Shown one piece after another: positions 15,465 to 59,773 of a DNA stretch of 64,000 nucleotides. The DNA is from a virus (Duplodnaviria > Heunggongvirae > Uroviricota > Caudoviricetes), in IMG/VR virus record IMGVR_UViG_3300014208_000025, positions 116,967-180,966 of that record, one strand, 5' to 3'. The notes beneath the pieces are model-generated. The model searched no databases. It was given only the letters and a program-made list of their open reading frames with translations, and had not been told where the DNA came from. Both the position numbers and the translations under genes were made by a program. How positions within the stretch are numbered: the first letter of the stretch is position 1; the number at the start of each line of letters is the position of its first letter.

Positions 15465-15487
15465 CATTTTATAGGAAATGTGTTACA

Positions 15488-20962: not shown

Positions 20963-21036
20963 TTAAACTCAAGAGTCTCATATCAGAATATGTTTATGAT
21001 AACGTGGATTTTGTTATCATAAGATCATATTTATAG
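20959..21036 (+). CDS. leader-only mini-ORF (25 aa)
   Basis: MIKLKSLISEYVYDNVDFVIIRSYL* starts in an ATGA overlap with the stop of 20372-20962. Stop TAG at 21034-21036. Confidence 0.25.
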   Translation: MIKLKSLISEYVYDNVDFVIIRSYL

Positions 21037-21043
21037 ACACAAC

Positions 21044-22006
21044 ATGAAACTCAAGACCATTCTTTTACTCGGTGAATCTTCCGGCTTCGGCATCGCCGGC
21101 GGTCCTTTGGGTGGTTCATTGACTTCTCATGATACTAAACTACGAGCCTATCCTAATAGTATGGATGACGTTGAAGGTTGGAATGGAATTGTTGAGGGTG
21201 ATGGTTGGTTTGTACATAGGGAATCAAATAATTGGGATACTAAACTTTCCGGAGCAAGCGTGTATATCACCGAGGGAGAACCACACAAGTATTGGATGCG
21301 TATCAAAACCCACGGCTTACGCAAGCCAAACGACACGAATGAATCCTACCGCCAACGTATCAATAAACACTCAGACAAGGTTGCCCGAGCATGGATGACT
21401 GCTGCGAAGAAACTCCACAACAATCCCGAAATCAACGAAGTCGGTAACGAGATTCAGATGACGTGGAAAGAAGCTTTCAAGTTAGCATTGGAGAGTGCCA
21501 AGGTCAAACCCTTCATCGCTGAATATGGAGAACGTCAGATAAATCCGACAAAACGTGCCTTAGACCGTGTAAGTCCGCCTATATCAGACCCTATTAATTT
21601 TACCCCAAGATTGGAAGAACAAGCGAATCCTCAAATTGGTTGGTCTGCCGTCGTGTTGGATGAACAATCCAAGAATCGTTTATTGACTGAATTCGGCTCC
21701 AAAATACCTGATGGGTTCGAAAAGATTGCTCATCACATGACGATTACAATGGGCGGATTACCACCCGAGAAGAAGGGTGACGTTGGTAAAACGGTGACTC
21801 TATTGGCCACTCACATAGGAATTTCTGAAAAGGCCATTGCGGTTAAAGTTTCAGGCTATTTCACAACCAATAAAAATCCACACGTTACTTTAGCCATTGA
21901 TAGAAATGGTGGGGCCAATCCAGTTGATTCCAATAAAATCACTAATTGGGAAACGTTGCCGCAACCAATTTCTCTATCGGGGAAAGTAACTGAGTATTCT
22001 CGTTAA
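21044..22006 (+). CDS. two-domain protein with C-terminal 2H phosphoesterase domain
   Basis: AHHMTITMGG and NPHVTLAID (two H-x-T-x motifs) in the C-terminal ~120 aa. Leader-like MKLKTILLLGE. Confidence 0.5.
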   Translation: MKLKTILLLGESSGFGIAGGPLGGSLTSHDTKLRAYPNSMDDVEGWNGIVEGDGWFVHRESNNWDTKLSGASVYITEGEPHKYWMRIKTHGLRKPNDTNESYRQRINKHSDKVARAWMTAAKKLHNNPEINEVGNEIQMTWKEAFKLALESAKVKPFIAEYGERQINPTKRALDRVSPPISDPINFTPRLEEQANPQIGWSAVVLDEQSKNRLLTEFGSKIPDGFEKIAHHMTITMGGLPPEKKGDVGKTVTLLATHIGISEKAIAVKVSGYFTTNKNPHVTLAIDRNGGANPVDSNKITNWETLPQPISLSGKVTEYSR

Positions 22007-24875: not shown

Positions 24876-25640
24876 TTATATCCTATTCGTTAACTTTCTT
24901 CTTTCATTGAGAATGGTGGCTTTAGATGTTCCGTATTTTTCTTGTAATTGAGAAATTGTGAATTGTTCTGATAAAATGTCTTTATGAAGTTCCGGTTTCA
25001 AATTTTTCAAATGTGCCTTTCTTTCGGAAATTCGTTTTTTGACTTCCTCTGACATAGGACCTCGTTTTGTTCCTTTCATCTTGTTATCATAAGAGTAATT
25101 CATTTTTCTATTTCTCAATATCATGTTTCGATTTTCAAATTTTTCCGTTCCTTTTCTTTTTCCGTTTCGTTGTATAAACCAATCCAATGTATAACGGCCA
25201 ATAGATTTTTGTTTTTGAAGTTGAATGGATGATTCACTATGTTTTTTTCCAAACATGGGGTTATTTTCCCCAGCACTAATCCCACTCATTTTTTCTATAA
25301 AAGCATCTCTATTTGGATTGTGGGTAATGTTATCGCCTCCACATGCTTTAGGACAAATATTGTAACCAATACCCTGAATGTATGGTTTGAATGTGTCTAA
25401 ATAGTATTGTTCTCTTTCAAGAAGAAGTTCTTTTTTTGACTCGGTTTCTTCTATAATTGACATTGAAAACTTATCGCCGCCATAGAAATTCCAAGAATTC
25501 TGTAATTTAGGATTACAGTGTTGATTTCTAATAAGATTTCCTTTGTGTTCTATTTCCCATCGTTTATCTATATCTTCCGAACTTCCAATATAGAATTTTC
25601 CGGTGACTTCGTTTGTGATTTTGTATATTCCACTTTTCAT
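24876..25640 (-). CDS. GIY-YIG homing endonuclease with NUMOD3-like repeats
   Basis: GIYKITNEVTGKFYIGSS...R...E...N. GENNPMFGKKHSE. Confidence 0.8.
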   Translation of the reverse strand: MKSGIYKITNEVTGKFYIGSSEDIDKRWEIEHKGNLIRNQHCNPKLQNSWNFYGGDKFSMSIIEETESKKELLLEREQYYLDTFKPYIQGIGYNICPKACGGDNITHNPNRDAFIEKMSGISAGENNPMFGKKHSESSIQLQKQKSIGRYTLDWFIQRNGKRKGTEKFENRNMILRNRKMNYSYDNKMKGTKRGPMSEEVKKRISERKAHLKNLKPELHKDILSEQFTISQLQEKYGTSKATILNERRKLTNRI

Positions 25641-25769: not shown

Positions 25770-27551
25770 TTATACAGTGTCCAAGTCTGCGACGAGGATT
25801 TTCCCGTAAAACTCGGGCCGCACGATCTTCTTCGCGTAACGGGTCATTACACCGCGTCTTGGGGTGAAATTCACTGGATCATACACCAAAGGTGTTTGAA
25901 CGAGTGGGATGTATGGAGCATAGACAGCTCCCGTTTCGAGGAAGTTATTTCCACGGAAGCCCAACAGAATGACGTTATCCGTCATATATGGGTTCTTATA
26001 GACTTGGAAGCGACTTGCGAAGCTACCAACACGGCTTACGCCCATGGCATACTTGGCTTGATCGCCATCTGTGTTCACAACGAATCCCGGAATGGATTCT
26101 AAAATCGTTGATACGTCTGGGGAGACGACCATGAAGTTAGCACCACCACGGAGGGTCAATTGGTGAATCTTGTTGGATACCTTTTGAATCTTGTTACCAA
26201 GAGTCTGATACCATGTTGCCTTGGTGTAATAGCCACCTGTTCCAGCAACCGTTTGGGTCACGACGTTGTAACCACCTGAGCCGTTAGGCACGATTTCGGT
26301 GTTGAGCTTGGCGCTCCAACGTTCCGTTGTTAATGCTGGGGCATTGGTAATCAACATGTCGAGAATTTCGAGGTCAATTTCCATTGAAACATATTCAGAC
26401 AACAGGGCCGTCAATTCGGCTTCTGCATCAATACTATGATAAGCATTCAAGTCTTGAGCGAGTTCTGGAGTCCAGACTGCCTTCAACTTACGAGTCTTAG
26501 CGACGATTGGTTCGCTTTTGAGTTCCAAGTTTACTTCTGGAATACCAATATCTTTGTTAAGACCGGTATCAGGAGCGTTGGTTGACTTACCTGTTGGATT
26601 GAAGAACGAGACACCACTGTTTCCAGTGTTATCTTCGAAGTCACCACGGTTACTATCCGTTGGTTGAACGGAGTAGATAACAGAACCAGTCAAGGAGCCG
26701 GTTGGTTGAACTGGAGCGGAACCAGAAGCTACGAAAGTTACTTCGCCGGCCGTGGTCAATTTGGTGAATGCTGGGTAATATTCACACACACCACCAACAT
26801 TCAATTCACCTGCTGCGCCGCCTGGTGTTACCGGCATAAATGAACGAACTGCGTTCGCGTCAAATACGTTACCATTAACCAACGACATGGCTCGGAAATT
26901 GTTTGTGGTAATGGCAAACAATTGACCGGCGGCCCATGATGCTGAAATGGAATTCAACAATTTGTCAGCGGAACCAGAACGTGCAGCCTGCACATAATAG
27001 TTGGTCAACCAATTAATGTCTTCCTGAGTAGCGGCTACGCTAGTAAAGGAACACGTTACGATTTTGTCGTTGGCAGTATAGCCATACTTACCAACGCCAT
27101 ACAGACCACCGATTGGCTTATCTGTTGAACCTGATTTGACGCCTGTTCCACCGAATAGTGATGAATAGTTACCGGTTGCATCAGCTGGACGACCACCTTG
27201 GGCTGAACCATACTTGAAATCCAAGTAAAATACGAGGCCCGATGGTAGATTCATTGGCTGGACGGAGACGAACTCCTTGGCAGCAAATTCTGCGAATACA
27301 CGCCGAACGAGTGGGAGAGCTACGCCTGCCCATTGTTCGGAGTTTGCGGAAGTACCAGTAGCAGTAGCTTCTTCAATTAGCTGTTTAGCTTGATTTTCGA
27401 GCAACACTGACATGTTGGACTTCTCGATATCACTTTTGATACCTTCGAGCAAGCCGGTCTTATCCCACTTGGTCACTAGACCACGGGTTTCCGTCATCAA
27501 GCGAGCTTGAGGATTCATTGTGTTTGTTAACAACGATTTAATGTTTTCCAT
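25770..27551 (-). CDS. major capsid protein (T4 gp23-like)
   Basis: QPMNLPSGLVFYLDFKY (T4 QPMNSPTGQVF). RKLKAVWTPELAQDLNAYHSIDAEAEL (T4 RQLKAAYSIELAQDLRAVHGMDADAEL). C-terminal YAPYIPL...TRY. N-terminal propeptide-like segment with LLEG / VLLEN. Confidence 0.9.
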   Translation of the reverse strand: MENIKSLLTNTMNPQARLMTETRGLVTKWDKTGLLEGIKSDIEKSNMSVLLENQAKQLIEEATATGTSANSEQWAGVALPLVRRVFAEFAAKEFVSVQPMNLPSGLVFYLDFKYGSAQGGRPADATGNYSSLFGGTGVKSGSTDKPIGGLYGVGKYGYTANDKIVTCSFTSVAATQEDINWLTNYYVQAARSGSADKLLNSISASWAAGQLFAITTNNFRAMSLVNGNVFDANAVRSFMPVTPGGAAGELNVGGVCEYYPAFTKLTTAGEVTFVASGSAPVQPTGSLTGSVIYSVQPTDSNRGDFEDNTGNSGVSFFNPTGKSTNAPDTGLNKDIGIPEVNLELKSEPIVAKTRKLKAVWTPELAQDLNAYHSIDAEAELTALLSEYVSMEIDLEILDMLITNAPALTTERWSAKLNTEIVPNGSGGYNVVTQTVAGTGGYYTKATWYQTLGNKIQKVSNKIHQLTLRGGANFMVVSPDVSTILESIPGFVVNTDGDQAKYAMGVSRVGSFASRFQVYKNPYMTDNVILLGFRGNNFLETGAVYAPYIPLVQTPLVYDPVNFTPRRGVMTRYAKKIVRPEFYGKILVADLDTV

Positions 27552-27588
27552 ATAGTTATTTGAGTTTTTTGTTTGTTTCCCGCATTAC

Positions 27589-29052
27589 TTACTTCTTCGG
27601 TGCGTTTGGGATTCCAGCGAGTTTCTTGAATCTATCCGCCATCGCGTTACTCTCAGTAATAATCTGAGCAGGTTTCGTAGATGCTACTGTCTTAGATGCG
27701 AGTCCTTCGGTAATCTGAGTAACACTTCTCTTAATCAATGGCTTGGTAGCCACTGGCTTTGAGTTGATACTCTTACCAAAATTTAGCGACTCCGCCAACA
27801 AGGCGTAGGCCAATTTCACTTCACGAACGCTCTTGGTCAGGTCAAATGATTCAACGATTTTCATTCTGTATGAATCGTCAAGAACCCCTGCGAACTCCTT
27901 AAACAACTTGTTCGTGTAAAGCAGTTTGGCGTTGAGCAGATTAACCTCATTAATTTGTCCACGGAGGAAACGGATAGCGTCGTAAGATTCCTTGAGGGCA
28001 GTCTTATACTTGGCTACTTCTGAAAGGCCGCCGACAGAGCCGGCGCCAATGTTTCCTTTACCGGAAATATTGTGATTCTTACCCGTAAGTTGTTTCTTAC
28101 TGGCATCTTGTGGTGCGGCTGGATAACCCTTGACTCCGCCTGATTTGTCCTGGCCGTCAACGTTCTTTGGAACGCCGTTTTCAACAGCTTCATCGACTTT
28201 TTCTTCCTTGTCGTCGTCATCCTTCTCACCTTTTTCGCCCTTCTTTGCGAGCCACGGCGGTAGTTTTCCTTCCTTGACGGATTCTTCTTCCTCTTCAGCC
28301 TCTTCATTTAATGAAGCAAGCAATTCTTCGAGGTTGATTTCTTCATCGCCTTCGGTTGGGGGAACTTCACCAACTGGCTCGGTTCCGTCCAATGCTGGGT
28401 CAAGTGGGGCTGGTGCGGCACTCGGAACTGTTCCGGCTGCACATGCTGGGTCACAAACTGGTGCTGGAGCCGGTGCGGCTCCCATTTCATCACCATCAGG
28501 CTCACCGACCGGTGCGGCAGGTGGTAATTGAGCGGCTGGATCGCCTTCAACAGGAGGCAATTCTGCAGCAGGTTGAGGTTCACCCTCTTCTTCGCCCGAT
28601 ACTTCTTGTTCCAGTTCCTTGATGATTTCATCCAAATCTTCAGATGTTAAACCGGCTTCGGCAACAACTTCTTCTTGTTCCTCAGTTTCGGTTACTATAC
28701 TCTGTTTTGCAGCTGGGGCTTTTGAGCCGGCAGCTCCTTCCGAACCTCCGACTGCAATGGTTTTAAAATCTTTCTTTGCAGATGAACCTTTATGTGGTTC
28801 CCCTTTGGAAACGGCTTTTGTCGTTGGTCCTTTGGCTTCTCCACCCTTACCGGATACTTGGTTAGGAGCTTCTACTTCGGATACCATTTCTTCTTGTTCT
28901 TCTTCAGAATCCTCTTTCAACTTCTCGGCAAACATTGCTTCAAAACGAGGAGCGAAGGCTTCTTCAAGCGATGCTTTGGCATTGGCGAGAGCAGTAGCTC
29001 TTACTGCCTTTGCGTCGGCGATGGCTTCTTTTAGCAATTCACTGTTAATCAT
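27589..29052 (-). CDS. prohead scaffold/core protein (gp22-like, acidic, low complexity)
   Basis: Immediately upstream of the gp23-like gene. Highly acidic, A/E/P/G-rich, predicted helical N- and C-termini. Confidence 0.5.
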   Translation of the reverse strand: MINSELLKEAIADAKAVRATALANAKASLEEAFAPRFEAMFAEKLKEDSEEEQEEMVSEVEAPNQVSGKGGEAKGPTTKAVSKGEPHKGSSAKKDFKTIAVGGSEGAAGSKAPAAKQSIVTETEEQEEVVAEAGLTSEDLDEIIKELEQEVSGEEEGEPQPAAELPPVEGDPAAQLPPAAPVGEPDGDEMGAAPAPAPVCDPACAAGTVPSAAPAPLDPALDGTEPVGEVPPTEGDEEINLEELLASLNEEAEEEEESVKEGKLPPWLAKKGEKGEKDDDDKEEKVDEAVENGVPKNVDGQDKSGGVKGYPAAPQDASKKQLTGKNHNISGKGNIGAGSVGGLSEVAKYKTALKESYDAIRFLRGQINEVNLLNAKLLYTNKLFKEFAGVLDDSYRMKIVESFDLTKSVREVKLAYALLAESLNFGKSINSKPVATKPLIKRSVTQITEGLASKTVASTKPAQIITESNAMADRFKKLAGIPNAPKK

Positions 29053-29951: not shown

Positions 29952-30250
29952 TAAAATTGAAGGAAATACTTCATCGCCTCCACGCTGAGAACGAACAAGG
30001 TCTAACTGAAGTTGATAGTTGGAAAATCACGGATGCCGACTATTTGACAGACATGGGGTTTACCATTGATGGTATGTATCATTTCGGGTTGAAGAAACCT
30101 GAGATAAAGATTGCTCACAAAAAGGGTCAGGGCTTCATCGTTGAAGACATGACCAAAAACAGAAAACAAGTTTTTCCCAAGTTTACCGAACTGATGGAAT
30201 ACTTTTCAAAGTATCAACAACGTTGGGAACGGGAACCATATTCAGAATGA
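29948..30250 (+). CDS. hypothetical protein with MIKLK leader
   Basis: MIKLKEILHR. ATGA overlap with the upstream stop. Confidence 0.35.
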   Translation: MIKLKEILHRLHAENEQGLTEVDSWKITDADYLTDMGFTIDGMYHFGLKKPEIKIAHKKGQGFIVEDMTKNRKQVFPKFTELMEYFSKYQQRWEREPYSE

Positions 30251-30867
30251 TTAAAGAATACAAAAGAAATTGTCCTACATGTGATAGAGTTTTGTATTAC
30301 ACACGAAATTTTAGCATGGTTGACGCCAACAGAAAAAATAGTAAATGTTCTTTTTGTCGCAATAGTGGCGAAAATAATCCGATGTTTGGAAAGCCCGGTA
30401 CTAAAGGAATGTCTGGCAAAAAACAATCATTGGAATTTCGTAAAAACTTATCTGAAAGATTGATTGGTAAACCCATATTAGAAGAAACGAAGAAAAAGAT
30501 ATCGTTTTCTGTAAAATTAGCAATGAAACGGCCTGATGTTAAACAGAAAATCTATGATTCCTTGTCAAAAACAAAATATCTAAAAGTCAGAACTGACAAA
30601 GGCCAATTGGAATTGTTAAAACGTTGGAATGCCTTGGGGTTTAATTTTGAACCTAATTATCAATTACACACCAACGATTTTTTATATTATGTTGATGGTT
30701 ATGACAAAGAAAAAAATGTTGTGCTAGAATACGACGGTAAATATCATAGATATCCATATCAGCAAAAAAAGGATTTGGTTCGGCAACAACAAATTATTTC
30801 CTTTCTTAATCCCAAAAAGTTTTGGCGATACAATTCCGAAACTAAACAATTCGCCGATGTTTTGTAA
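30223..30867 (+). CDS. homing-endonuclease-like protein: N-terminal zinc ribbon plus NUMOD3 repeat, C-terminal putative PD-DxK-like nuclease domain
   Basis: CPTCDRV...CSFC. GENNPMFGKPGTKGMSGK. C-terminus YVDGYD...VVLEYDGKYH. Paralog of 51801-52487. Confidence 0.45.
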   Translation: MGTGTIFRMIKEYKRNCPTCDRVLYYTRNFSMVDANRKNSKCSFCRNSGENNPMFGKPGTKGMSGKKQSLEFRKNLSERLIGKPILEETKKKISFSVKLAMKRPDVKQKIYDSLSKTKYLKVRTDKGQLELLKRWNALGFNFEPNYQLHTNDFLYYVDGYDKEKNVVLEYDGKYHRYPYQQKKDLVRQQQIISFLNPKKFWRYNSETKQFADVL

Positions 30868-31540: not shown

Positions 31541-32443
31541 TTACTTGTTCGTGATACTTCCAACATTGATGAACGGAATAGCTCCAGAAGTTACTTGGGG
31601 CAGAATACCATTCCACTTATCCAAAGCAATGCTTTGTAACACCAAGGGATTCTTGACTAATGATTCGGCAATGACCGTGTTAGCGTCAGCTTGAGCTTTT
31701 GCCTTCAACATGATTGACTGAGCTTCACCTTCAGCATTGGCAATCTTGACTCGCTTTTCACCTTCGGCTTTGGCGGCTGCTTGGTCGGCTTCAGCCTTGG
31801 TTTGTTGAACCTTCAACTCGGATGCAGATGTTTGTTGTTTCTGAGCAATGATGGAGTTAATCGCGGCTTCAATCTTTTCATCAACATGCAGTTTGTTGGC
31901 AAAAGTAATGTAGTCAACTTCCCACCAGGTTCCAGTGCGAGCCTTTACTTCGGTCTTGACTTCATCAAGAAATGCACCACGTTTTTCACCGATGATTTCC
32001 ATTGGGTCATACTTTGATGCAATTCTACCGAGGGCATCCCGAACTTCATTACGAAGATAACCATGAATGATGTGGAATGGGTCGGTGCGAAACTTTACAA
32101 ACGTATGTGGAATCTGTTCGTTTACAAAGCGACCTGACATGGAAACGTCAGCTTTGATGGCCGCACCACCTTTACAGTTGAAGGAAATGGCTTCATCGGT
32201 TGGGCTACCTTCCGTGACGGCTTCACACCAAATGACGTTCTGTTGGAATGTGGGATATTCATAGACCCGAGTAGTCAATGGGAAATAGAAGACCCAACCC
32301 GTCTGTTGGGGGTAGTTTTCTACTCCTTTTTCAGACCCCGATTGATTGACTTTGATGCCAACATAGCCGGGTTCAATCCGTGTGCATCCTGTAATGGCGA
32401 GAACCGTTACACAGGCAAATAATGTTGTAATTAGCTTTTTCAT
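31541..32443 (-). CDS. SPFH/band-7 (stomatin/prohibitin/HflKC-like) lipoprotein
   Basis: Signal peptide with lipobox LAITGC. SPFH core plus Ala/Gln/Lys-rich coiled coil (ASELKVQQTKAEADQAAAKAEGEKRVKIANAEGEAQ). Confidence 0.7.
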   Translation of the reverse strand: MKKLITTLFACVTVLAITGCTRIEPGYVGIKVNQSGSEKGVENYPQQTGWVFYFPLTTRVYEYPTFQQNVIWCEAVTEGSPTDEAISFNCKGGAAIKADVSMSGRFVNEQIPHTFVKFRTDPFHIIHGYLRNEVRDALGRIASKYDPMEIIGEKRGAFLDEVKTEVKARTGTWWEVDYITFANKLHVDEKIEAAINSIIAQKQQTSASELKVQQTKAEADQAAAKAEGEKRVKIANAEGEAQSIMLKAKAQADANTVIAESLVKNPLVLQSIALDKWNGILPQVTSGAIPFINVGSITNK

Positions 32444-32458
32444 ACGTGTTTGTTTTGT

Positions 32459-32710
32459 TTATTTTGATGTTGCGATACAGACTCCTCCAAGGTAGCCTAA
32501 AATTAAGAATGTGAGCCAGCCACCGAAAGCGGCCAAAACCCAACACGCCACCACTTTCAATACTGCGACGAAGGAAACGGCAACTGTTCCTTTAATCAAC
32601 AGAATAATGGTGTAAATGCTGTAGGCAAACATGCCAAGGCCCACACCAAGACCGCTAACTACGGCGAAAATCATTAGGAGGGCACCAAAAATTACAAGGA
32701 ATTTGTTCAT
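32459..32710 (-). CDS. small membrane protein (2 predicted TM helices)
   Basis: Highly hydrophobic 83-aa ORF directly upstream of the SPFH gene. Confidence 0.4.
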   Translation of the reverse strand: MNKFLVIFGALLMIFAVVSGLGVGLGMFAYSIYTIILLIKGTVAVSFVAVLKVVACWVLAAFGGWLTFLILGYLGGVCIATSK

Positions 32711-32716
32711 GGAGAA

Positions 32717-32947
32717 TTAGGAGTTGAATTTTTTGATATAGTAAATGATTTCACGAACGACGACGGTGATGAGTCCGCCAACAATTAGTGCAGACAAAAC
32801 AAGGCCGAGTGCGAATGTCAAGGTGTTAGCGGTTGTCATTAAAGCGGCAGACCAACTCCCCAACAAAATAGTCACCAAAACGACCAATATGTAATAGACA
32901 AGTTTCCGGGTGACTATCCAACCCAACGATTTCCAATTTGTGTTCAT
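32717..32947 (-). CDS. small membrane protein (2 predicted TM helices)
   Basis: Hydrophobic 76-aa ORF. First gene of the putative three-gene membrane operon. Confidence 0.4.
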   Translation of the reverse strand: MNTNWKSLGWIVTRKLVYYILVVLVTILLGSWSAALMTTANTLTFALGLVLSALIVGGLITVVVREIIYYIKKFNS

Positions 32948-33039: not shown

Positions 33040-34212
33040 TTATTGTATCCCTCCATATGCAGCAGTATCAATAAATGTTGAGTCATCATTCTTAGTATGA
33101 TACCCCTCAAATAGTTCATGATAAAGGTTATTAACCTTTCCAAAATCAACTGACTTCCGTAAAGTTGTTGATTTATACGCATTATCCAATTGAATTTGCA
33201 TGTCCTTGGCAAAATCCATAACCGTTTCATAAGACCAAGCTCCATTCTTTACGGCCAAAATTTCTTCTCGATCAGTACGCTTCACGATAACCTTACCCTG
33301 CGTCAAAATTTCATAACCCATTCGCATGAGCCGAACAAGATGGGAAGCGTGCTTCGTGTCATAGCCGGATTTGACTTCAAGTTCTCGACGTGCTGGATTT
33401 CTTTCCGCCTTCCAACGTATCCATGACTTGTAGTTACTCATGGCCTTGTCATACGCTCGTTCCTTGTTGATTAGTTCGATGACTTCATCTTTTAAGGATA
33501 GGTCTTTTCGAATCTTTTCAATCACGCCAGCGGCATACGCATCCGGCCAATTATCCCAAGAAACCTTCTTGCTAGAAAGTTCTGCGATAAGTGTCCAAAT
33601 CGTTTCCTTCAAGTCGGCCCGATTTTGTTCATCCATCGGATACTGATTGAGATTCCACTGTTCCACCTTGGACTTGATGTAACCGAACACTTCCGTTGTG
33701 CCCTTCGTGAGTTCCGGTGGAAGACCAAACTGTTCCCGTGTCGGCGGCGACAATTCGCCCATGACAATCCACTTGCGATGACGTTCAATCTTTGCTAATT
33801 GTGCCCATGCGTACCCTCCGAACGTGAACTTAGCCTTTGAAGAAAGAAATAAATCTCTGTTTTCAAGTAGTTTATTCATTGTTGGTGTCATCATCAAAAA
33901 ATCTGTAGGGTCAACCCATAAAAGTTCCATGATATTTGGATTCACATTAGCCGCAAGAATCATGAATTTTCTAAGAGAATACACCGTAGATTCCACTTTT
34001 GGATTCTTTGGATTTTTAAGATGGTCAAATCTCTTATGGAGTTCAACATCATTTTCAGATTGTTCAAAACGATGAAACAAGTCATATTCTACTGTTGATG
34101 GGGGGGCAACAATTCCCTTTAAGTCAAGGTCGGATAATTCGTTGGCAAGGCCGTAGCATTGACTACCATGTTTCGTCATGAAAATTAGATTGTCGTAAAA
34201 CCACTTGTTCAT
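33040..34212 (-). CDS. Pol-beta-superfamily nucleotidyltransferase (RlaP/pfam10127-like)
   Basis: HGSQCYGLANELSDLDLKG = G-S-x(9)-S-D-x-D nucleotidyltransferase signature near the N-terminus. About 390 aa. Confidence 0.55.
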   Translation of the reverse strand: MNKWFYDNLIFMTKHGSQCYGLANELSDLDLKGIVAPPSTVEYDLFHRFEQSENDVELHKRFDHLKNPKNPKVESTVYSLRKFMILAANVNPNIMELLWVDPTDFLMMTPTMNKLLENRDLFLSSKAKFTFGGYAWAQLAKIERHRKWIVMGELSPPTREQFGLPPELTKGTTEVFGYIKSKVEQWNLNQYPMDEQNRADLKETIWTLIAELSSKKVSWDNWPDAYAAGVIEKIRKDLSLKDEVIELINKERAYDKAMSNYKSWIRWKAERNPARRELEVKSGYDTKHASHLVRLMRMGYEILTQGKVIVKRTDREEILAVKNGAWSYETVMDFAKDMQIQLDNAYKSTTLRKSVDFGKVNNLYHELFEGYHTKNDDSTFIDTAAYGGIQ

Positions 34213-34387
34213 AATGTTGTTTCTAAATTGTTTAATCCCAATCTTTGTATTATGTTTCTCGACCTTTTCATGCGACGTAAACGATGACGTTTAGACAATT
34301 GTATATGATTTGGAAATCTATAAAGAAACCCTTTAGGATGATGAAAATAGACACTTGTTAAATTACAGAGGTCAAACCTTTTCACGA

Positions 34388-34609
34388 CTAATTGTGTGTA
34401 ATATCAATCAGTTGAATTTTTATTTGTTCGGGGTGTCTAAATGTAAAATATTGTTTGTCAAAACGATCAATTCTCTCAATTCCACGAGTGGAAACATGGA
34501 TGGCTTCATCTACGGCGGACGCTATTTCCGTTTTTTGTTTGTGTGAAAAAATATATCCACCTGGCATTTCCAATTCAAATTCGGCAGTCAAGGTAAAATG
34601 ATGTTTCAT
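34388..34609 (-). CDS. small hypothetical protein
   Basis: ORF only. Confidence 0.25.
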   Translation of the reverse strand: MKHHFTLTAEFELEMPGGYIFSHKQKTEIASAVDEAIHVSTRGIERIDRFDKQYFTFRHPEQIKIQLIDITHN

Positions 34610-34613
34610 TATA

Positions 34614-35180
34614 TTATGTGTGTGTTATTGGCTCAAATGGTTTCTCACAAAGCAAGTCAACAAATCGCATGATTTCTTTGTAAGTTTTGGAATCGACATC
34701 GAACGACCACCGTTTCGTAGCAACGGAATCAATCCAGTCACGCAACGAAGTTCCAAATTCTTCTGACCGGGCTTTCCAGTCCGCACACATTTCGGCAACA
34801 TATACAGATGGCATTTTGTCAATGCTTCCCCAATATTCTACATGGTGTGGGTTGGTTTGACAATGATTGGAAATAGCAAACTTCATTTTGAGTTTCTTAT
34901 CTGCAACTTCATCCGACGATTTTCCGGGCACAATACTTTCCCATTCAATACCGCGAAATTTACTAGCATCATGTACAAATCCATTGGCAATCAAACGTTT
35001 TCCTAAATCCGTTTCACCTTGATTGATAAGTTTCTCCCCTAAAATCAAACAATTATCCTCCACGTTACGAATGTGACGTGTAAGCGCCCGAATCTTACTC
35101 ATGGTAAGGTCGGCTTCTTTCTTTATTCTATCAGACTTTTTCATAAAACTAAAATCCCATGCCCATACTACCGCCATCAA
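34614..35180 (-). CDS. putative HD-domain phosphohydrolase
   Basis: H...HD...H...D-like spacing (RHIRNV, FVHDASKF, NHCQTNPHH, CADW). Weak. Confidence 0.3.
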   Translation of the reverse strand: MMAVVWAWDFSFMKKSDRIKKEADLTMSKIRALTRHIRNVEDNCLILGEKLINQGETDLGKRLIANGFVHDASKFRGIEWESIVPGKSSDEVADKKLKMKFAISNHCQTNPHHVEYWGSIDKMPSVYVAEMCADWKARSEEFGTSLRDWIDSVATKRWSFDVDSKTYKEIMRFVDLLCEKPFEPITHT

Positions 35181-35677
35181 TAGCCCCCTCCACCGTCGTC
35201 ATAATCTCGGTATGTAGATTCTGAAAACTCTTTTTTGATGGCTTTCAACTCGTCACGAATTTCCATCCAAAGAACCCCAAGGCGATTCTTTCCCGAACCG
35301 TCGCCACCGTCGGCCCAATAACTGTCATTAACCGTATGTTCAACAATGGTGGCATCCTCCGTTGACAGAAGGAGTTTTTCAATCTGTGGATATTGGGCAA
35401 TCTTGGCCATCAACGCCTTTTTCATAACACCTTCCTTGACTTCTTCCCAATCCTTCCTCAAGGGCAAGTCTCTACGACGGCCCATCTCCGCACAAGACCA
35501 CGGGCCTTTACATAATCTTACAGCTTCTTCATGTTCTGTACCCGCGAATTTTTGAGATTGAAAATAATGTTCAGTCGTCTTCCATTCCTTACCATCCAAG
35601 ACGATTGGATGTTTTGAAAAGTTGGAGAAATCCCCATAGGGGTCAGCAATCTTGTAGAAGTTAATCACGGAGTTCAT
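35177..35677 (-). CDS. YbiA/NADAR-domain (DUF1768) protein
   Basis: Near-colinear with E. coli YbiA: INFYK..YGDFSNFS...W.TTEHYFQSQKF...PLRKDWE.VKE.VM.KAL.AK...VEHT.NDSYWADGGDGSGKNRLG.LWMEIR. Confidence 0.85.
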   Translation of the reverse strand: MNSVINFYKIADPYGDFSNFSKHPIVLDGKEWKTTEHYFQSQKFAGTEHEEAVRLCKGPWSCAEMGRRRDLPLRKDWEEVKEGVMKKALMAKIAQYPQIEKLLLSTEDATIVEHTVNDSYWADGGDGSGKNRLGVLWMEIRDELKAIKKEFSESTYRDYDDGGGGY

Positions 35678-35773
35678 ATTTTCTATTCAGTTTTCTTGAC
35701 CAAGCAGAAGTTTCCAAATACCGATACAATTGTATCAATCGTTGGAAACTCGCTGTTGAGTTTGAGTATTCCA

Positions 35774-36289
35774 TTAATCGACATCTTGTTTTGGAACTGG
35801 GCTACCGGCAAACTTTCCATCGGTTACAACCACACGAGTAAGGTCTTTGGTCTTGATTTTGACTTTCTTGGCTTTGGCGAACTTGGGTTTAAGGGATTCA
35901 AATAACTCGACAACGTTGCTGATGATACCCTTGCTCTTCTTTCGTTTTCCAGAAGTGTTTTGAGTCTTGGCCGCGTCAACCAACTTGGAAAGAACTAACC
36001 CGGCATCCGCACCCTCTTCTTGTTGAACTACCCAAGCGCCGATTTCTTTATCTTTTAGAAACCCCTCTTTATCATTTAAAATGACTACATATTCCATTTT
36101 TACTTTTGGTAAATCGTTCCCACCAATATCAATAGGAAGACCACCTGAATCAATTCCTTCTTCTTTAGAATTTTCAACGGCCACTTCTTCAGCAATTTCT
36201 TCAAGTGCTCGTATGATTTCATTTACTTTAATTGGGTCTATCTTTTTTTCCAACAGCACCGACTCTACTTCGTCTATATTTATTTTCAT
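35774..36289 (-). CDS. hypothetical acidic protein
   Basis: ORF. TATAAATA on its sense strand about 41 nt upstream of the ATG. Confidence 0.35.
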   Translation of the reverse strand: MKINIDEVESVLLEKKIDPIKVNEIIRALEEIAEEVAVENSKEEGIDSGGLPIDIGGNDLPKVKMEYVVILNDKEGFLKDKEIGAWVVQQEEGADAGLVLSKLVDAAKTQNTSGKRKKSKGIISNVVELFESLKPKFAKAKKVKIKTKDLTRVVVTDGKFAGSPVPKQDVD

Positions 36290-36330: not shown

Positions 36331-36338
36331 TATTTATA
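36331..36338 (-). promoter_or_regulatory. T4 late-promoter-like octamer TATAAATA (minus-strand sense)
   Basis: Plus-strand tatttata reads TATAAATA on the minus strand. 41 nt upstream of the ATG at 36289. Also 5 nt upstream of the plus-strand GIY-YIG gene. Confidence 0.4.
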
Positions 36339-36342
36339 CCAT

Positions 36343-37176
36343 ATGGAAACTGAAATGTCAACAATGAAAGATATTATATGGGAAGAAAACGACTCTATCA
36401 TACCACCGAAGAAATCCGTCAACGAAATAACGAAAAACGAATGCGTTACTACAACCACCACAAACGACTTGAACGGAAGCGGTCACTCAACCGATATTAC
36501 AAGAACAAAGATATCAGGAATCTACAAGATTGTCAATAAAATAAACGGAAAGTATTATGTTGGTAGTTCTAACATTATCAGTGGTAGATGGAATGGGCAT
36601 AGACATTTGTTAAATAAAAATATTCATAAAAACCCACACTTACAACTTTCTTGGAATAAATACGGAGAGAGAAATTTTGACTTCATTATTGTTGAAGAAA
36701 TTCCAAGAGAGAATCTTATTGAAGTTGAACAAAAATATCTTGATGTTGCTAAAACCGAACAACATAAATGTTACAACAAATCTTTTTTAGCAGATAGAAT
36801 TGAAATGACTTCACAAGTTATTGATAAAATTAGAGAATCAAATAGAAAACGAGTATGGTCAAAAGAATCATTACTTAAACTAAGTCAAATCCATAGAGGA
36901 CAAAAACACACAGAAGAAACAAAAAAGTTATTAAGTAAATTACTCAAAGGAAGAAAACTATCAGAAAAAACTAAAATAAAAATAGGCAAATCAAGAATTA
37001 ACTTAAAAATCTTTAAAAGGTATAATGTAAAAAATATAGAAAGCGAAGAAATTTTTAATGGAAACTATTATGATTTAGTAAAAAAATTAAATATGAGTAA
37101 GAGAAGTGTTAGCAATCTTATCAATGGTCATATAAATTTGTGTAAAAATTGGAAAATTATTTCATTACAAAACTAA
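36343..37176 (+). CDS. GIY-YIG homing endonuclease with NUMOD3
   Basis: ISGIYKIVNKINGKYYVGSS...R...E. GQKHTEETKK repeats. Confidence 0.8.
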   Translation: METEMSTMKDIIWEENDSIIPPKKSVNEITKNECVTTTTTNDLNGSGHSTDITRTKISGIYKIVNKINGKYYVGSSNIISGRWNGHRHLLNKNIHKNPHLQLSWNKYGERNFDFIIVEEIPRENLIEVEQKYLDVAKTEQHKCYNKSFLADRIEMTSQVIDKIRESNRKRVWSKESLLKLSQIHRGQKHTEETKKLLSKLLKGRKLSEKTKIKIGKSRINLKIFKRYNVKNIESEEIFNGNYYDLVKKLNMSKRSVSNLINGHINLCKNWKIISLQN

Positions 37177-39402: not shown

Positions 39403-40020
39403 TTACTTCCCAATTTCAGTAAGAATGTCACGAACAATGGATTCGGCATGCTCCCACTTATTCGTAACCGGGTTCTTTATCATACCTTCATTGATGTTGC
39501 CACTTGGAAACATGAAAGCTCCACGAGTAGATGGATTAGAAACGAAGTCGAAAGCAATCAATTCAAAGTCATCTTGAACAATGTCGGCTTGCTCACGCAT
39601 ATCCTTTTGTACCGTGCCCATACCACGACTGGAAATACCAAGCCGGATATTGGCTCGGAACAATTCTTTGAGAATGTTACCGTTAGGAGTAGGCAACACT
39701 TCAATCGAACCAATCAAGTTATCACCTTCCCAATGGACTTCAAGAACGTTATGTGAAACGTTTTGAAGATTGACCACCGAAGATTCTGGGTGGTCAAGTT
39801 CGCCTAATGCACGTCGTTCTTTTACAAAGTTTTCAGTATATTTTGAGGCTTCACGTAGCAAAACGTTTTTAGTATAAACCCGTCCGTTTTGGTTCTTAAC
39901 ACCGGAACGTTGAAGAATACCCTTTACTACCAATCGGCGATTTGGGTCGTCATTAGTATTTTCAAAGAGATTATCTTTTACATAATCAAACGCAATACAA
40001 TCTACCAACAATTGTTTCAT
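39403..40020 (-). CDS. prohead core protease (T4 gp21 / peptidase S77-like)
   Basis: GELDHPESS and LGISSRGMG (candidate catalytic His/Ser, as remembered for gp21). Size 205 aa. Position between internal-protein-like genes and downstream of the portal. Confidence 0.55.
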   Translation of the reverse strand: MKQLLVDCIAFDYVKDNLFENTNDDPNRRLVVKGILQRSGVKNQNGRVYTKNVLLREASKYTENFVKERRALGELDHPESSVVNLQNVSHNVLEVHWEGDNLIGSIEVLPTPNGNILKELFRANIRLGISSRGMGTVQKDMREQADIVQDDFELIAFDFVSNPSTRGAFMFPSGNINEGMIKNPVTNKWEHAESIVRDILTEIGK

Positions 40021-43000: not shown

Positions 43001-43063
43001 ATATTAAACTCTTCTTACTTAGATATAAATAGGGTTTCGTGTATGGAAAATGTATTATTTCAG

Positions 43064-46000
43064 TTATTCCCCAAGGATGTTGGTTTCGTCTAACATTGAC
43101 TTGCGACCCGTTGATTCAGCCTCTTTAATCAACTCTTTTTTTTCCTTTTTTGTCTTATCCAAGAAACCTTGCAGATTTTTGAGTAAACCACCGCCTCTTT
43201 TTGACTCCAAATGTAACGGGGAGTCGTTTTTCCATGTGTGAGTCAACTCACGGCCGGACCTTGTCTTGGCCTTATTTTCCAAGTCTCCCCGAGGGTCTTC
43301 CCCAAATGGATAGTCGGTAGCCTTTTTGTTACCTTTTTGTGATGGTCTTACATAACCGTCAGCATGTTCACCATGTTTTTCGGTTACATTCGTCTTTTCT
43401 TCCAATGGAGGAAGACCTTCTGGACCACCAGATTCACCTCCCGGCAAGCCTAAATCACCTTCCGGACTTCCGCCGCCACCTAAATCTGTCGGACCACCTC
43501 TGGCTCCGCCCGGATTACCGTCACCAGCATTCGGATTGATTTTCTTAAATGGTTTCGCAGGGTCGTTGCCCTCTTCTTCAATAGACTTAAACCTCCAACC
43601 CTGTTTGGAATCTTCCACCATCTGGTCAAGCAACGCTTCGGAATCATCTTCCGATAGATTGAATACGTTCTTGTAAATCCAATCCTTGGAAAAAATCTTG
43701 CTTTCCATCATGTTCTTGGCCAACTCGGTCTTGTTGCTCCAAACTTCAATCTTTTCCTTTTCAAAGATGGTAGATGGGTTAGTAAGCTCAAGTTTGAAAT
43801 TAACCAAACTCTCGTCACGATAACCTTGCGAATACAAATGGACGATAGCAATCTTTTCAAGTTCTGAAACGAGGACTTTTTGAATTCGTCCGATAGTCTT
43901 GGCAAAACGCACGTCTTCGGAGGCCAAAGTGGCTTTACCGGAAAGTTCTTCTTCATAACCCAAAAACGCCTTTGGAATCTTCAAAGCGGCCATTAGCTTG
44001 TTACGCAGATATTCGATATCGTCAATACCTGTGAATTCCATACCACTCAAAGTATCAATGGAAGTTCCACTGTCACTACCACGAACTGGTAAATAGAAAT
44101 CTTCAACCATGTTTTGCAGGTTGAAACGAAGGTTATAATCGCCCGTGTTCGGGTCAATATACGGTACTTTTTTCATTTTGGAGATTGCCTTCTCCATAAA
44201 TGTGTCAACATCTTGTGGTGGAATGTTACCGACATCCAGCTTGAAAATACGCTTCTCAGGAGCACGCATGATACGATGGATTAACATAGCGTCTTCCATC
44301 AATGATAATTGCTTCCAAACTCGACGAGCACCTTCCATCATAGATTTACCATATGGTAGGAAGTTGGAATCGGAAAGCAGTCTAAAGTGAGCACACTCAA
44401 AAGATTCGAGAGTTTCTACCTGTGATGTATCGGTAGGACGGATTTGGAACTTAACATAGTTCTTGTTAAGCGGATCGGTGTTTTCAAGACGTTCAACATT
44501 GTAAGCGGAAATGGGTTCGATTTGATAGACGCCGTATTCAGGGGAGATATACAATCGCATGTAGAAGTCACCATACTTACAGACGTTGCGAGTCCACGAC
44601 CAAAGGTTGTGTTCAATATTCAACACATCATAAAACAAGTTGGTTAGAATGCCTTTGATATTGTCATCTTCGGCATGGACGACAAGGATTTTACCCAACT
44701 CATTTGCGGACAAACATTCGTCGGCGTAAATATCAAGAGCGGATGCTAGGATCGGGTCCATATCCATCGTATTCGAAATTATACAACTATCAGTCGCAAA
44801 GTTGGCAAACTGTTCAACGGTAACATCATACACATCAATAGGGCCAATGGATTCAATTGATTTAATTTTATGATTCAACGTAGAAACGACATCATTTTTA
44901 AATGTATTCCAATCACAATTAGAGTATTTAAATCTATTTTGTATGGTTGTATAATCGCAACCAACATCTTTTATTAACCCCCACAAAGTTAGATTTCCAT
45001 TTTGCTTGTAATACTCAGTTGCTTTAACTTTTAGAACTTCTATGGTTAAATCATTACGGTATTTTGGATTTTTGTTTCCAGTTTGATCCCTATTAACAAA
45101 TACTTCTTTAAGTGTTTCAGAACGTTTTTTATTAGATTCGTCGGAATGAGTCTTACCGAAAAATGGATTGTTTTCTCCTTTCCTCTCACCATTCCACTTA
45201 TGACATTTTCTATTTTTATAACCATCTGAATTAAACATTTTTTCCAATGTTTTTTGTTTGTTTTCAGGACGCCACATTTCATGGGCAATTTTCCTATGAT
45301 AATCTAAATGATCCGATTTGGTCATGATTTGAAGATTATCCGGTAAATTATATGTTTTATTAAAATTTTTGTGATGGACACATTCATTAGTCAAAATAGG
45401 TTTGTAAAATTGTTCCGCCACAATTTTGTGTTCGGCTTGCCATCCTTTTGAAAAGTTATAAATACAATTATATCCATGATAATTTTTCTGGTAAAACGGC
45501 ATTACTGAATCTCCAACTTTCAAATCTACAATCTTTTTGTATTCACCGTTCCTCATTAAAAATGGATGTTTTATGCTTCCAATAACATATTGACCATTAT
45601 CAAAGGTTACTTTATATCCCATTCTCGTTCCACCCCCCTTTTTACGAGGATGAAATGCTTTTCCTAACTTGATTGATTTTGATACATGGTCATAAGAAAA
45701 CACATAGAATCTTTCTTGAGGCTTATCTTTGTACTTTTCTGCCAGTTCTTTAATAGTGGGCCTTGATCCATCTGGTAATGGAATGATAGTATCTGGTCCT
45801 ACACAATCGTAGTCCCGGAACAAATCAATTCTGGCAGCTTGGTAGGCGAGCGAAAAATCTCTTGTGTAGGCGTTGTAAGAAGTGGAACGAACCCGGTTGA
45901 AACGGTCACGGAGACTGTTTCGGTCGGTAGCATACATCAAGTCGCTTGTGTCCTTGACTTTGAGTTTTTTACCACCGACATTTCTTACTACTACACCGGA

Positions 46001-46099
46001 AGCAAAAAGTTTCTTTAAGCGAGCGAATAGTGAACGTTGTTTAACGTCAATTTCGTCGTGATTTCCGGTTGTTTCTGGTCTAAGTACTTGGTTTGCCAT
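43064..46099 (-). CDS. portal protein (T4 gp20-like) interrupted by an intein
   Basis: HRIMRAPEKRIFKLDVGNIPPQDVD (T4 [20 protein letters not shown]). Gly-rich C-terminus. Intein blocks as given in the intein feature. Confidence 0.75.
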   Translation of the reverse strand: MANQVLRPETTGNHDEIDVKQRSLFARLKKLFASGVVVRNVGGKKLKVKDTSDLMYATDRNSLRDRFNRVRSTSYNAYTRDFSLAYQAARIDLFRDYDCVGPDTIIPLPDGSRPTIKELAEKYKDKPQERFYVFSYDHVSKSIKLGKAFHPRKKGGGTRMGYKVTFDNGQYVIGSIKHPFLMRNGEYKKIVDLKVGDSVMPFYQKNYHGYNCIYNFSKGWQAEHKIVAEQFYKPILTNECVHHKNFNKTYNLPDNLQIMTKSDHLDYHRKIAHEMWRPENKQKTLEKMFNSDGYKNRKCHKWNGERKGENNPFFGKTHSDESNKKRSETLKEVFVNRDQTGNKNPKYRNDLTIEVLKVKATEYYKQNGNLTLWGLIKDVGCDYTTIQNRFKYSNCDWNTFKNDVVSTLNHKIKSIESIGPIDVYDVTVEQFANFATDSCIISNTMDMDPILASALDIYADECLSANELGKILVVHAEDDNIKGILTNLFYDVLNIEHNLWSWTRNVCKYGDFYMRLYISPEYGVYQIEPISAYNVERLENTDPLNKNYVKFQIRPTDTSQVETLESFECAHFRLLSDSNFLPYGKSMMEGARRVWKQLSLMEDAMLIHRIMRAPEKRIFKLDVGNIPPQDVDTFMEKAISKMKKVPYIDPNTGDYNLRFNLQNMVEDFYLPVRGSDSGTSIDTLSGMEFTGIDDIEYLRNKLMAALKIPKAFLGYEEELSGKATLASEDVRFAKTIGRIQKVLVSELEKIAIVHLYSQGYRDESLVNFKLELTNPSTIFEKEKIEVWSNKTELAKNMMESKIFSKDWIYKNVFNLSEDDSEALLDQMVEDSKQGWRFKSIEEEGNDPAKPFKKINPNAGDGNPGGARGGPTDLGGGGSPEGDLGLPGGESGGPEGLPPLEEKTNVTEKHGEHADGYVRPSQKGNKKATDYPFGEDPRGDLENKAKTRSGRELTHTWKNDSPLHLESKRGGGLLKNLQGFLDKTKKEKKELIKEAESTGRKSMLDETNILGE
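44771..45805 (-). mobile_element. intein (345 aa) with HNH endonuclease domain and NUMOD3, inserted in the portal gene
   Basis: N-terminal splice block C-VGPDTII. Block B VTFDNGQYVIGSIKH (T...H). HNH-like CVHHKNFNKTYNLPDNLQIMTKSDHLDYH. GENNPFFGKTHSDE. C-terminal block VYDVTVEQFANFATDSCIISN followed by Thr at +1. Penultimate His is absent. Confidence 0.65.
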
Positions 46100-58482: not shown

Positions 58483-58515
58483 GTCTATAAATATAGTGAG
58501 CCAACGGAAATCTCA

Positions 58516-59733: not shown

Positions 59734-59773
59734 AATTGTTTAGTTCTCCAACTATAAATATAGTAAAATTTGA

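Follow-up and report, generated by a model that had tools for sequence, protein, structure and literature searches.

An accessory island with NADAR, DUF5662 and RlaP genes in the head-gene region of a T4-like jumbo phage: candidate counter-defence and repair cargo

In the head-morphogenesis region of a tailed phage represented by the IMG/VR virus record IMGVR_UViG_3300014208_000025, three neighbouring minus-strand genes encode a YbiA-type NADAR N-glycosidase, a DUF5662 protein and an RlaP-family nucleotidyltransferase. The cluster is flanked by the prohead protease gene on one side and by the scaffold and capsid genes on the other. We analysed it within a 64-kb window (positions 116,967 to 180,966 of that record), which is part of a phage genome of about 352 kb; coordinates given here are those of the window and are collected in Table 1. 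A protein encoded in the window is found at 100% identity on a 351,839-bp JGI metagenome contig and on a 351,720-bp ENA contig, and the window carries a T4-type structural set comprising a gp23-family capsid protein, a gp20-type portal, an S77 (gp21-type) prohead protease and the large terminase. These findings identify the source as a T4-like jumbo phage with a genome of about 352 kb. We found no near-identical DNA among GenBank phages; this phage is represented in metagenomes only. The three genes belong to a co-oriented run of minus-strand open reading frames (ORFs) that spans 36289 to 31541 in the ORF list, with no terminator-like site on the minus strand from 36300 to 33040. The NADAR gene is bordered by orf171 and by DUF5662, whose ATG lies 32 nt beyond the NADAR stop codon, and not by any gene for an ADP-ribosyltransferase (ART).

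The NADAR protein matches PF08719 of Pfam (114.4 bits against a cut-off of 35.1; 8e-33), phrog_1017 of PHROG and the NCBIfam model TIGR02464, named "riboflavin biosynthesis intermediates N-glycosidase" (124.9 bits against 73.7). It aligns with E. coli YbiA (EcYbiA; PDB 2B3W) over 148 residues without a single gap and at 55% identity (E = 2e-52), in full agreement with a sequence-only reading of the window that had described it as almost colinear with YbiA; its similarity to the NADAR protein of PDB 8BAU is remote (E = 6e-4). NADAR subfamilies are distinguished by a signature residue in the last strand, which is Glu in YbiA, Asp in the DarT1-linked BC4488 and DarG1 proteins and His in the T4 gp30.3 type (PMC11543638, PMC11125620). 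In the window protein this residue is a glutamate, E113 in "IVEHT", aligned to "VEH" of YbiA and "YEA" of 8BAU. As a reference for contacts with ADP-ribose (ADPr) we used E43, K50, R79, W89, R93, D130 and W133 of the P. nicotianae (Phytophthora) NADAR, applying a +2 numbering offset of our own inference. According to the alignment to 8BAU and 2B3W, their counterparts are E36, K43, R67, W77, K81, D118 and W121, where K81 is a lysine as in EcYbiA rather than the arginine (R93) of the P. nicotianae protein. Together with E113, these residues make up a putative active-site and ADPr-contacting set that would amount to a complete ADP-ribose pocket.

The window protein thus has in common with EcYbiA the ADPr-contacting residues, the Glu signature (VEH) and a "naked" core lacking an N-terminal extension, the alignment with YbiA beginning at residue 2. 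In contrast to EcYbiA, it has a C-terminal tail ending in DDGGGGY and is encoded by a phage, in an accessory island of the head module instead of the LexA-controlled dinG-ybiB operon. The closest bacterial relatives (50-64% identity) come from Acidobacteriota, Chloroflexota, Planctomycetota, Clostridia, Cyanobacteria and Bacteroidota; being scattered over so many phyla, they are uninformative as to the host or the donor. As far as its sequence goes, the protein is an ordinary conserved YbiA captured by the phage.

The activities of such enzymes have been described. All four NADAR families, including EcYbiA and T4 gp30.3, remove ADPr from guanine (G-ADPr) in DNA (PMC11125620) and in RNA (PMC11833690), and its removal from cytosine (C-ADPr) as well is a property of the YbiA-type and "NADAR"-type enzymes that DarG1 and T4 gp30.3 do not share. 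EcYbiA takes both modifications off DNA and RNA in vitro (PMC11125620, PMC12945103), and YbiA, a robust ADPr-base hydrolase, prefers cytidine-ADPr and RNA substrates (PMC12945103). Because the window NADAR combines 55% identity to an enzyme with this activity with intact catalytic residues, we expect it to remove ADPr from bases. Its closest functional precedent among phages is AdfN: the AdfN proteins of T4, Bas32 and Bas60 neutralise DarTG1 and restore phage growth on DarTG1 hosts (PMC11825919). Like these, the window protein is an orphan NADAR of a phage, its active site is intact and its gene is a variable accessory one; to judge by sequence, its likely task would also be the removal of ADPr from nucleic-acid bases during infection. 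Unlike the AdfN of T4, it stands outside the gp30.3 clade, with Glu instead of His at the signature position and a Phage_30_3 match of 19.8 bits (cut-off 36) over 43 residues only. It differs from DarG1 antitoxin NADARs as well, having Glu rather than Asp, no basic N-terminal DNA-binding extension and no adjacent DarT1. Nor does it resemble an ART-NADAR pair of the YarT-YbiA type, since no ART adjoins the NADAR gene in the window or in any related island.

The nucleotidyltransferase carries the Pol-beta signature G16-S17-x9-S27-D28-L29-D30, which can be read directly from the sequence and which had been noted before as GS-x(9)-SD-x-D in a protein of 390 residues; matches to PF10127 (44.1 bits against a cut-off of 23; 2.6e-11) and to phrog_388 "nucleotidyltransferase" (1.7e-55, residues 2-375) bear the assignment out. 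BLASTP aligns it over most of its own length with T4 NrdC.11 (E = 9e-11, 24% identity, 345 aligned columns), a protein placed in the RlaP family (PMC12776372), and a similarly extended homology, at 34% identity, links it to gp166 of PVP-SE1, the "nucleotidyltransferase" of PVP-SE1-like phages. The features that it shares with the family (PfRlaP, PaRlaP, T4 NrdC.11 and PVP-SE1 gp166) are the GS…DxD motif and a C-terminal GxDxKxxSH, which is also present in T4 NrdC.11 and reads GYDTKHASH at residues 283-291 here. It departs from them in its location inside a head-gene region, and no RNA ligase (RtcB or Rnl) adjoins its gene within the 64 kb seen here; moreover, RlaP and the CCA-adding enzyme are 16 kb apart, whereas the two lie within about 2 kb of each other in PVP-SE1 and 0.5 kb apart in a Vibrio phage. 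According to a 2025 preprint, Pseudomonas RlaP adds one or two nucleoside monophosphates to the 3'-OH of RNA, not to DNA or protein, prefers mimics of cleaved tRNA and restores the aminoacylation of over-trimmed tRNA (PMC12776372). In jumbo phages RlaP is the commonest repair nucleotidyltransferase (PMC7824862). Membership in this RNA 3'-end repair family points to RNA repair and not to ADP-ribosylation, and, with genes for a class II CCA-adding enzyme and a 2H phosphoesterase in the same window, the phage appears to be well equipped for repairing RNA ends. In two related loci, L028 (6546-8738) and L029, RlaP is a 730-residue ORF with an insertion of about 340 residues that starts with Cys after "GYD", ends in "…QGN" immediately before "SKHASH" and gives a weak LAGLIDADG_3 match. 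This insertion is probably an intein, its boundaries in the sequence falling inside the conserved C-terminal motif, and such a position suggests that the GYDxKxxSH motif is functionally critical.

In the case of the middle gene of the cluster, we found no mention of DUF5662 or PF18907 in the literature. Its product matches PF18907 (3.7e-23); homologues have about 175 residues and, therefore, the true start is the ATG at 35144, giving 176 residues, rather than the TTG at 35180. The family is large, with 724 clusters (at 50% identity) detected at E <= 0.001 among 1.84 billion representative proteins. In an alignment of 63 homologues (29-55% identity), H24, H58, D59, K62, H100, H101, E118, D122 and R126 are invariant, and H94, N98, E103 and E129 are at least 90% conserved. 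The resulting H…HD…H…HH…D arrangement is the pattern of two-metal HD enzymes, with H24, H58-D59, H94, H100-H101 and D122 as the putative ligand set. A confident AlphaFold2 model (pLDDT 94.8, pTM 0.89) is all-helical and shows the HD helical fold, which is nearest to the HD-GYP and PgpH phosphodiesterases, whereas other HD phosphohydrolases, such as PH0347, YfbR, YqeK and V-cGAP3, rank lower. Invariant residues and modelled fold thus lend substance to the earlier suggestion of a possible HD hydrolase, and we predict DUF5662 to be a binuclear, metal-dependent phosphohydrolase of the HD superfamily.

Foldseek searches of the PDB and BFVD with the model gave weak, non-significant matches, with HD proteins ranked at the top; neither a single-sequence nor a profile search against PDB sequences returned anything, and in Pfam the protein matched the DUF5662 model alone and not PF01966 (HD) or the HDIG models. 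There was likewise no match in NCBIfam or to any PADLOC defence or anti-defence model. In comparison with HD-GYP, PgpH (7TMR-HD) and the HD domain of Runella HD-Pnk, the identity is 8-14% and the GYP motif is not present; unlike HD-GYP and PgpH, DUF5662 is a stand-alone phage protein of 160-175 residues without sensor or membrane domains. Domain fusions of DUF5662 homologues, which we considered as a functional clue, were uninformative. The small hydrolases encoded beside RlaP in other phages (PVP-SE1 gp162 and P0126 of a Vibrio phage) turned out not to be DUF5662, and gp194 of Bacillus phage SP-15, encoded upstream of the SP-15 DUF5662, is not RlaP.

How these genes are arranged elsewhere was examined in 48 related loci from IMG/VR (41 with distinct gene orders), whose prohead proteases are 57-83% identical to that of the window. 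They reveal a conserved order: protease, orf269, a GMP-reductase-like gene, orf171, an optional NADAR, DUF5662, 0-2 kb of variable sequence, RlaP, an optional NADAR, ADP-ribosylglycohydrolase or other gene, orf190 on the opposite strand and, finally, the scaffold and capsid genes. Of the 14 distinct islands that contain both anchors, 13 have DUF5662, 10 have RlaP and 5 have NADAR; the first count is biased, since DUF5662 served as the query for fetching most loci, and two of the five NADAR islands are overlapping fetches from a single contig. The genes also occur without each other: RlaP is found without DUF5662 in L003, and DUF5662 without RlaP in L010, L022, L026 and L039. Outside this clade, RlaP was near DUF5662 in none of the nine contexts inspected, all of them phage-like (L047/48, Bacillus phage SP-15, a Twortvirinae phage and six metagenomic contigs). 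The sequence-only reading had placed the cluster in a hypervariable accessory insertion and regarded it as a candidate anti-defence or self-immunity module linked to ADP-ribosylation. The former description holds insofar as content varies, but not for DUF5662, RlaP and the GMP-reductase-like gene, which recur at the same position in most relatives. The latter does not stand, for each gene has been gained and lost independently and DUF5662 is not beside RlaP in the outside contexts. Independent presence and absence, together with these nine contexts, therefore favour three independent cassettes over an obligate three-gene system.

The NADAR gene itself occupies one of two positions, either directly upstream of DUF5662 (in the window, L011 and L030-35, and with another type of NADAR in L046) or downstream of RlaP. 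Relatives possess three types of NADAR, all carrying the glutamate signature: a YbiA-like type as in the window (63-76% identical to the window protein), a type with an N-terminal extension of about 25 residues (24-28% identical) and a third type in L027. In L041, L042, L043 and L049, the place directly after RlaP, a NADAR position elsewhere, is taken by an ADP-ribosylglycohydrolase (PF03747, 6e-35). ADPr-processing cassettes thus appear to swap at this locus, a pattern typical of swappable counter-defence cargo. Next to DUF5662, eight distinct loci have an ORF with a weak, sub-threshold match to YpsA-SLOG, and further content of the related islands includes a Pyr_excise glycosylase and a DUF4419 protein. 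By eye only, two more ORF clusters look DNA methyltransferase-like, one radical-SAM-like and three homing endonuclease-like.

The idea of self-immunity rests on three DarT/PARP-class ART-fold proteins that the sequence-only reading had ascribed to the phage. One candidate is left, and it is a weak one: the product of 20372-20962 (+) gives the sole ART signal, a Pfam match to ART-PolyVal of 26.2 bits, below the cut-off of 31.2, and about half of its 64 homologue clusters have a precomputed PF18760 match. This gene is located 14 kb from NADAR, on the opposite strand and beyond the capsid genes. The other two candidates, 16927-18381 (with "LYHGT" at the N-terminus) and 47871-48851 ("FHGT"), are without Pfam, PHROG-function, NCBIfam, PADLOC or PDB-sequence support; hhalign connected them to the ART-PolyVal alignment through a shared N-terminal leader only. 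A set of three ARTs is therefore not confirmed. The leader, of the M-I-K-L-K-x-L-L-x-E type with its terminal Glu within 9-14 residues, opens ten ORFs of the window (Table 1), including those for the ART-PolyVal candidate, the 2H/Acb1-like phosphoesterase, a GNAT acetyltransferase and a Pro/Ala/Glu-rich protein, encoded beside the S77 prohead protease, that we guess to be scaffold-like. It is conserved in the alignment of homologues of the ART-PolyVal candidate. By its sequence the leader looks like a T4-style capsid-targeting sequence cut after Glu, which would mean that its carriers are packaged in the head and injected; on the ART candidate it implies injection to act on host targets. NADAR, DUF5662 and RlaP have no such leader.

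Two ORFs of this part of the window deserve mention. The 484-residue product of 16927-18381 (+) combines the leader with an HExxH-like "VHELNH", a CxxC…CxxC zinc ribbon and a C-terminal "VYRG…"; it matches no family and may be a polyvalent injected protein. The product of 21044-22006 (+) has two H-x-T motifs ("HHMTI" and "PHVTL") in its C-terminal half with the spacing of 2H phosphoesterases, although it has no Pfam match, and may represent a second, divergent 2H enzyme near the ART-PolyVal and Acb1-like genes.

Taken together, the family assignments, conserved catalytic residues, modelled fold, synteny and modular gain and loss of genes lead us to lean, if only somewhat, towards an island of counter-defence and repair cargo, in which three enzymes most likely act independently of one another in undoing nucleic-acid damage inflicted by the host; substrates, timing of expression and the counter-defence role are what we infer from these data. 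The NADAR enzyme would provide AdfN-like counter-defence by stripping ADPr from the guanine or cytosine bases that host ART toxins have modified in RNA or single-stranded DNA. RlaP, going by its family, would rebuild RNA 3' ends alongside the CCA-adding enzyme and the 2H phosphoesterase. DUF5662 would be a metal-dependent phosphohydrolase, with a 2',3'-cyclic or 3'-phosphate RNA end or a cyclic-nucleotide signal as candidate substrates. Several observations weigh against such an interpretation. EcYbiA, the closest characterised relative of the window NADAR, did not rescue DarT1 toxicity in E. coli, nor did T4 gp30.3 (PMC11125620), and no YbiA-type NADAR is known to counter DarTG1 in vivo. With 50-64% identity to YbiA proteins of many phyla, the protein looks like a slowly evolving housekeeping enzyme rather than a fast-evolving anti-defence one, and NCBIfam would name it a riboflavin-intermediate N-glycosidase. 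As for repair, the ORFs scanned in the window, which covers 64 kb of about 352 kb, included no RNA ligase, Pnkp or Tpt1. The AdfN precedent therefore makes the idea that the phage NADAR counters a host DarTG system reasonable, as this role is already established for other NADAR clades (PMC11825919), while the failure of EcYbiA in vivo weakens it for the YbiA-type enzyme considered here.

The same genes could be read as steps of one pathway of RNA, in particular tRNA, restoration, in which NADAR would strip ADPr, DUF5662 would produce a 3'-OH from a 2',3'-cyclic or 3'-phosphate end, RlaP would add nucleotides back and the CCA-adding enzyme or an unseen ligase would finish the job. Several features of the genes agree with this idea: the genes are co-oriented and not interrupted by a terminator-like site, the CCA-adding enzyme and 2H phosphoesterase share the window, and DUF5662 lies upstream of RlaP in most relatives. 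So does the biochemistry, as RlaP requires a 3'-OH end (PMC12776372), YbiA prefers RNA substrates (PMC12945103) and, according to a citation in PMC6097658, an HD domain heals 2',3'-phosphate ends in Runella HD-Pnk. NADAR, moreover, is found in 5 of the 10 islands with RlaP and in none of the 4 without it, but this association is not significant (Fisher p ~0.13, hand calculation). Since the genes also occur singly (RlaP in L003, DUF5662 in the four loci named above), DUF5662 has no RlaP nearby in nine other phage contexts, the hydrolases adjacent to RlaP in PVP-SE1 and the Vibrio phage are not DUF5662 and the window has yielded no ligase, we regard an integrated pathway as unlikely. An explanation that does without ADP-ribosylation altogether is metabolic housekeeping: NADAR would destroy GTP-derived ribosylaminopyrimidine intermediates and, together with the GMP-reductase-like enzyme, manage purine and nucleotide pools. 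The TIGR02464 match above the trusted cut-off and the 50-64% identity to YbiA proteins of many bacterial phyla fit here, as do the GMP-reductase-like gene, conserved in the island and 1.5 kb upstream of NADAR, and the annotation of several phage NADAR homologues next to GTP cyclohydrolase or queuosine genes. Nevertheless, we saw no riboflavin or GTP cyclohydrolase II gene in the window, YbiA has robust ADPr-base hydrolase activity (PMC12945103), and the ADP-ribosylglycohydrolase that fills the same slot in relatives, with the weakly matching SLOG-like ORF nearby, speaks for ADP-ribose chemistry, all of which makes housekeeping an improbable role.

ADP-ribose chemistry could, in turn, be directed at the products of the phage itself, with NADAR undoing the ADP-ribosylation that one or more ARTs of the phage would inflict, off target, on phage nucleic acid. 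Such self-immunity has a precedent in the myxobacterial YbiA that acts as antitoxin to the ART toxin YarT (PMC11125620), co-expression of NADAR and ART in some T4-like phages has been inferred from gene context (PMC9503650), and the window does hold one ART-PolyVal-like ORF. However, there is one weak ART and not three; it is encoded 14 kb away on the other strand, its leader implies host targets while NADAR has no leader, and ART and NADAR are adjacent in no related island. We therefore consider self-immunity highly improbable. It is also very unlikely, in our view, that the island quenches signals of CBASS, Thoeris or type III CRISPR-like systems, with DUF5662 cleaving host immune signals (cyclic di- or oligonucleotides, or ADPr-derived ones) and NADAR acting on soluble ADPr derivatives. 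The ligand pattern of DUF5662 would suit this task, and its gene is scattered as a free-standing one over unrelated phages, where Macro or CYTH genes are sometimes a few kb away; soluble ADPr derivatives have been predicted by comparative genomics to be the targets of NADAR and Macro domains in phages (PMC9503650), and NADAR directly precedes DUF5662 in the window and in the relatives listed above. On the other side, DUF5662 lacks GYP, its Foldseek matches are not significant and it matches no defence or anti-defence model.

Returning to independent counter-defence and repair cargo, some of its components have been published before: jumbo phages commonly carry NADAR and RlaP, and an anti-DarTG1 function has been established for phage NADARs. 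What is modestly new is the HD class of DUF5662, the probable RlaP intein in two relatives and the exchange of cassettes for ADPr hydrolases at one locus, in which three NADAR types and an ADP-ribosylglycohydrolase take part; this exchange is the signature of an arms race. The repeated capture of a YbiA-type NADAR by one phage clade offers a clean test of whether YbiA-type enzymes, with their in vitro preference for RNA and cytidine-ADPr, shield phage or host RNA from ART toxins. The HD reading of DUF5662 is new, and a binuclear-type site combined with wide spread among phages makes the protein a tractable target for biochemistry. It is conceivable, though doubtful, that DUF5662 represents a new phage-borne family of binuclear HD phosphodiesterases, which would either heal 2',3'-cyclic-phosphate RNA ends, supplying the 3'-OH for RlaP and the CCA-adding enzyme in a ligase-independent rescue of tRNA 3' ends, or degrade host immune nucleotide signals. 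If so, NADAR, ADP-ribosylglycohydrolase and SLOG cassettes that recur next to DUF5662 would, under both alternatives, point to an island within the head module of T4-like jumbo phages that is dedicated to the reversal of damage or signals.

Table 1. Features of the 64-kb window, in window coordinates
Feature	Positions	Strand	Remarks
Class II CCA-adding enzyme with HD domain	15461-16930
Starts of ORFs with capsid-targeting-like leader	16927, 18378, 19839, 20372, 29948, 52506	+
Starts of ORFs with capsid-targeting-like leader	24566, 24856, 41129, 48851	-
2H/Acb1-like phosphoesterase	19839-20375
T4-type major capsid protein, Gp23 family	25770-27551
Scaffold/major capsid genes	25770-29052
SPFH/Band-7 lipoprotein	31541-32443	-	Pfam, PHROG
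Two small membrane proteins	32717-32947, 32459-32710	-	Pfam, PHROG
RlaP-family Pol-beta nucleotidyltransferase, 390 aa	33040-34212	-	PF10127, phrog_388
Doubtful 58-aa GTG-start ORF, or mere 175-nt spacer	34209-34385	-	One cluster-mate in L015
Hypothetical 73-aa ORF between DUF5662 and RlaP	34388-34609	-
DUF5662 protein, 176 aa	34614-35144	-	PF18907; mechanical ORF 34614-35180
YbiA-type NADAR N-glycosidase, 166 aa	35177-35677	-	Pfam PF08719, TIGR02464, YbiA alignment
Flanking 171-aa ORF (orf171), function unassigned	35774-36289	-	Heads co-oriented run; kept in 13 distinct related islands
GIY-YIG/NUMOD3 homing endonuclease, mobile element inside island	36343-37176	+	Pfam; presence varies among relatives
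GMP-reductase-like IMPDH/GMPR-family enzyme, 327 aa	37173-38156	-	PF00478 7.7e-56
S77 (gp21-type) prohead protease	39403-40020

Between DUF5662 and RlaP, the 73-residue ORF has no credible family match and no tblastn match in loci L003-L050, being unique to the window, and the 175-nt spacer has no Rfam match and is not more stably folded than its shuffled versions (z-score +1.05). Across the island, ARAGORN found no tRNA genes, and Rfam searches for structured RNA gave none at gathering thresholds and chance-level matches only at E up to 1. We dropped a 14-bp palindrome (35723-35736), as about four are expected by chance per 64 kb (hand estimate). For the GMP-reductase-like protein the best NCBIfam match is GMP reductase (type 2) PRK05458, which scores 262 bits and stays below the cut-off of 344; its gene is found in the head-module island of 24 of the 41 distinct related loci, an unusual site for a purine-interconversion gene.

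Downstream of RlaP, the co-oriented run continues into an SPFH cassette (31541-32947) preceded by a strong sigma-70-like promoter at 33002-32974 (TTGACA-17-TATTAT with an upstream TG). The lipoprotein family is present in 461 GenBank phage records; the cassette is not in any of the related islands (L003-L050) and is unique to the window phage. We considered it as part of an RlaP repair system, an idea that goes back to Burroughs and Aravind (2016), and rejected this because the cassette is missing from all related islands, is preceded by its own promoter and belongs to the common phage morons; its acquisition appears to have been recent and its expression early. We likewise rejected a T4 late promoter (TATAAATA) ahead of the run, since the sole minus-strand match (36331-36338) is better explained as the TATTTATA motif that belongs to the divergent GIY-YIG gene. 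In gene orientation, TATTTATA precedes many start codons of either strand by 5-25 nt, at about ten intergenic sites (for example, 21028-21035, 36331-36338, 43024-43031, 58486-58493 and 59753-59760), and 12 occurrences of TATAAATA/TATTTATA in the window compare with an expectation of 3.5. The motif probably acts as a phage-specific promoter or initiation element, and no copy directly precedes the NADAR, DUF5662 or RlaP gene.

Elsewhere in the window, besides a primase gene, an ORF of 1068 residues at 53032-56238 (-) fuses an Mre11-like calcineurin phosphoesterase to a Rad50/SbcC-like ATPase, which in T4 are the separate gp47 and gp46. The portal gene (43064-46099, -) contains an intein with HNH and NUMOD3 endonuclease motifs, and free-standing GIY-YIG/NUMOD3 homing endonucleases are encoded at 24876-25640, 30223-30867, 36343-37176 and 51801-52487.

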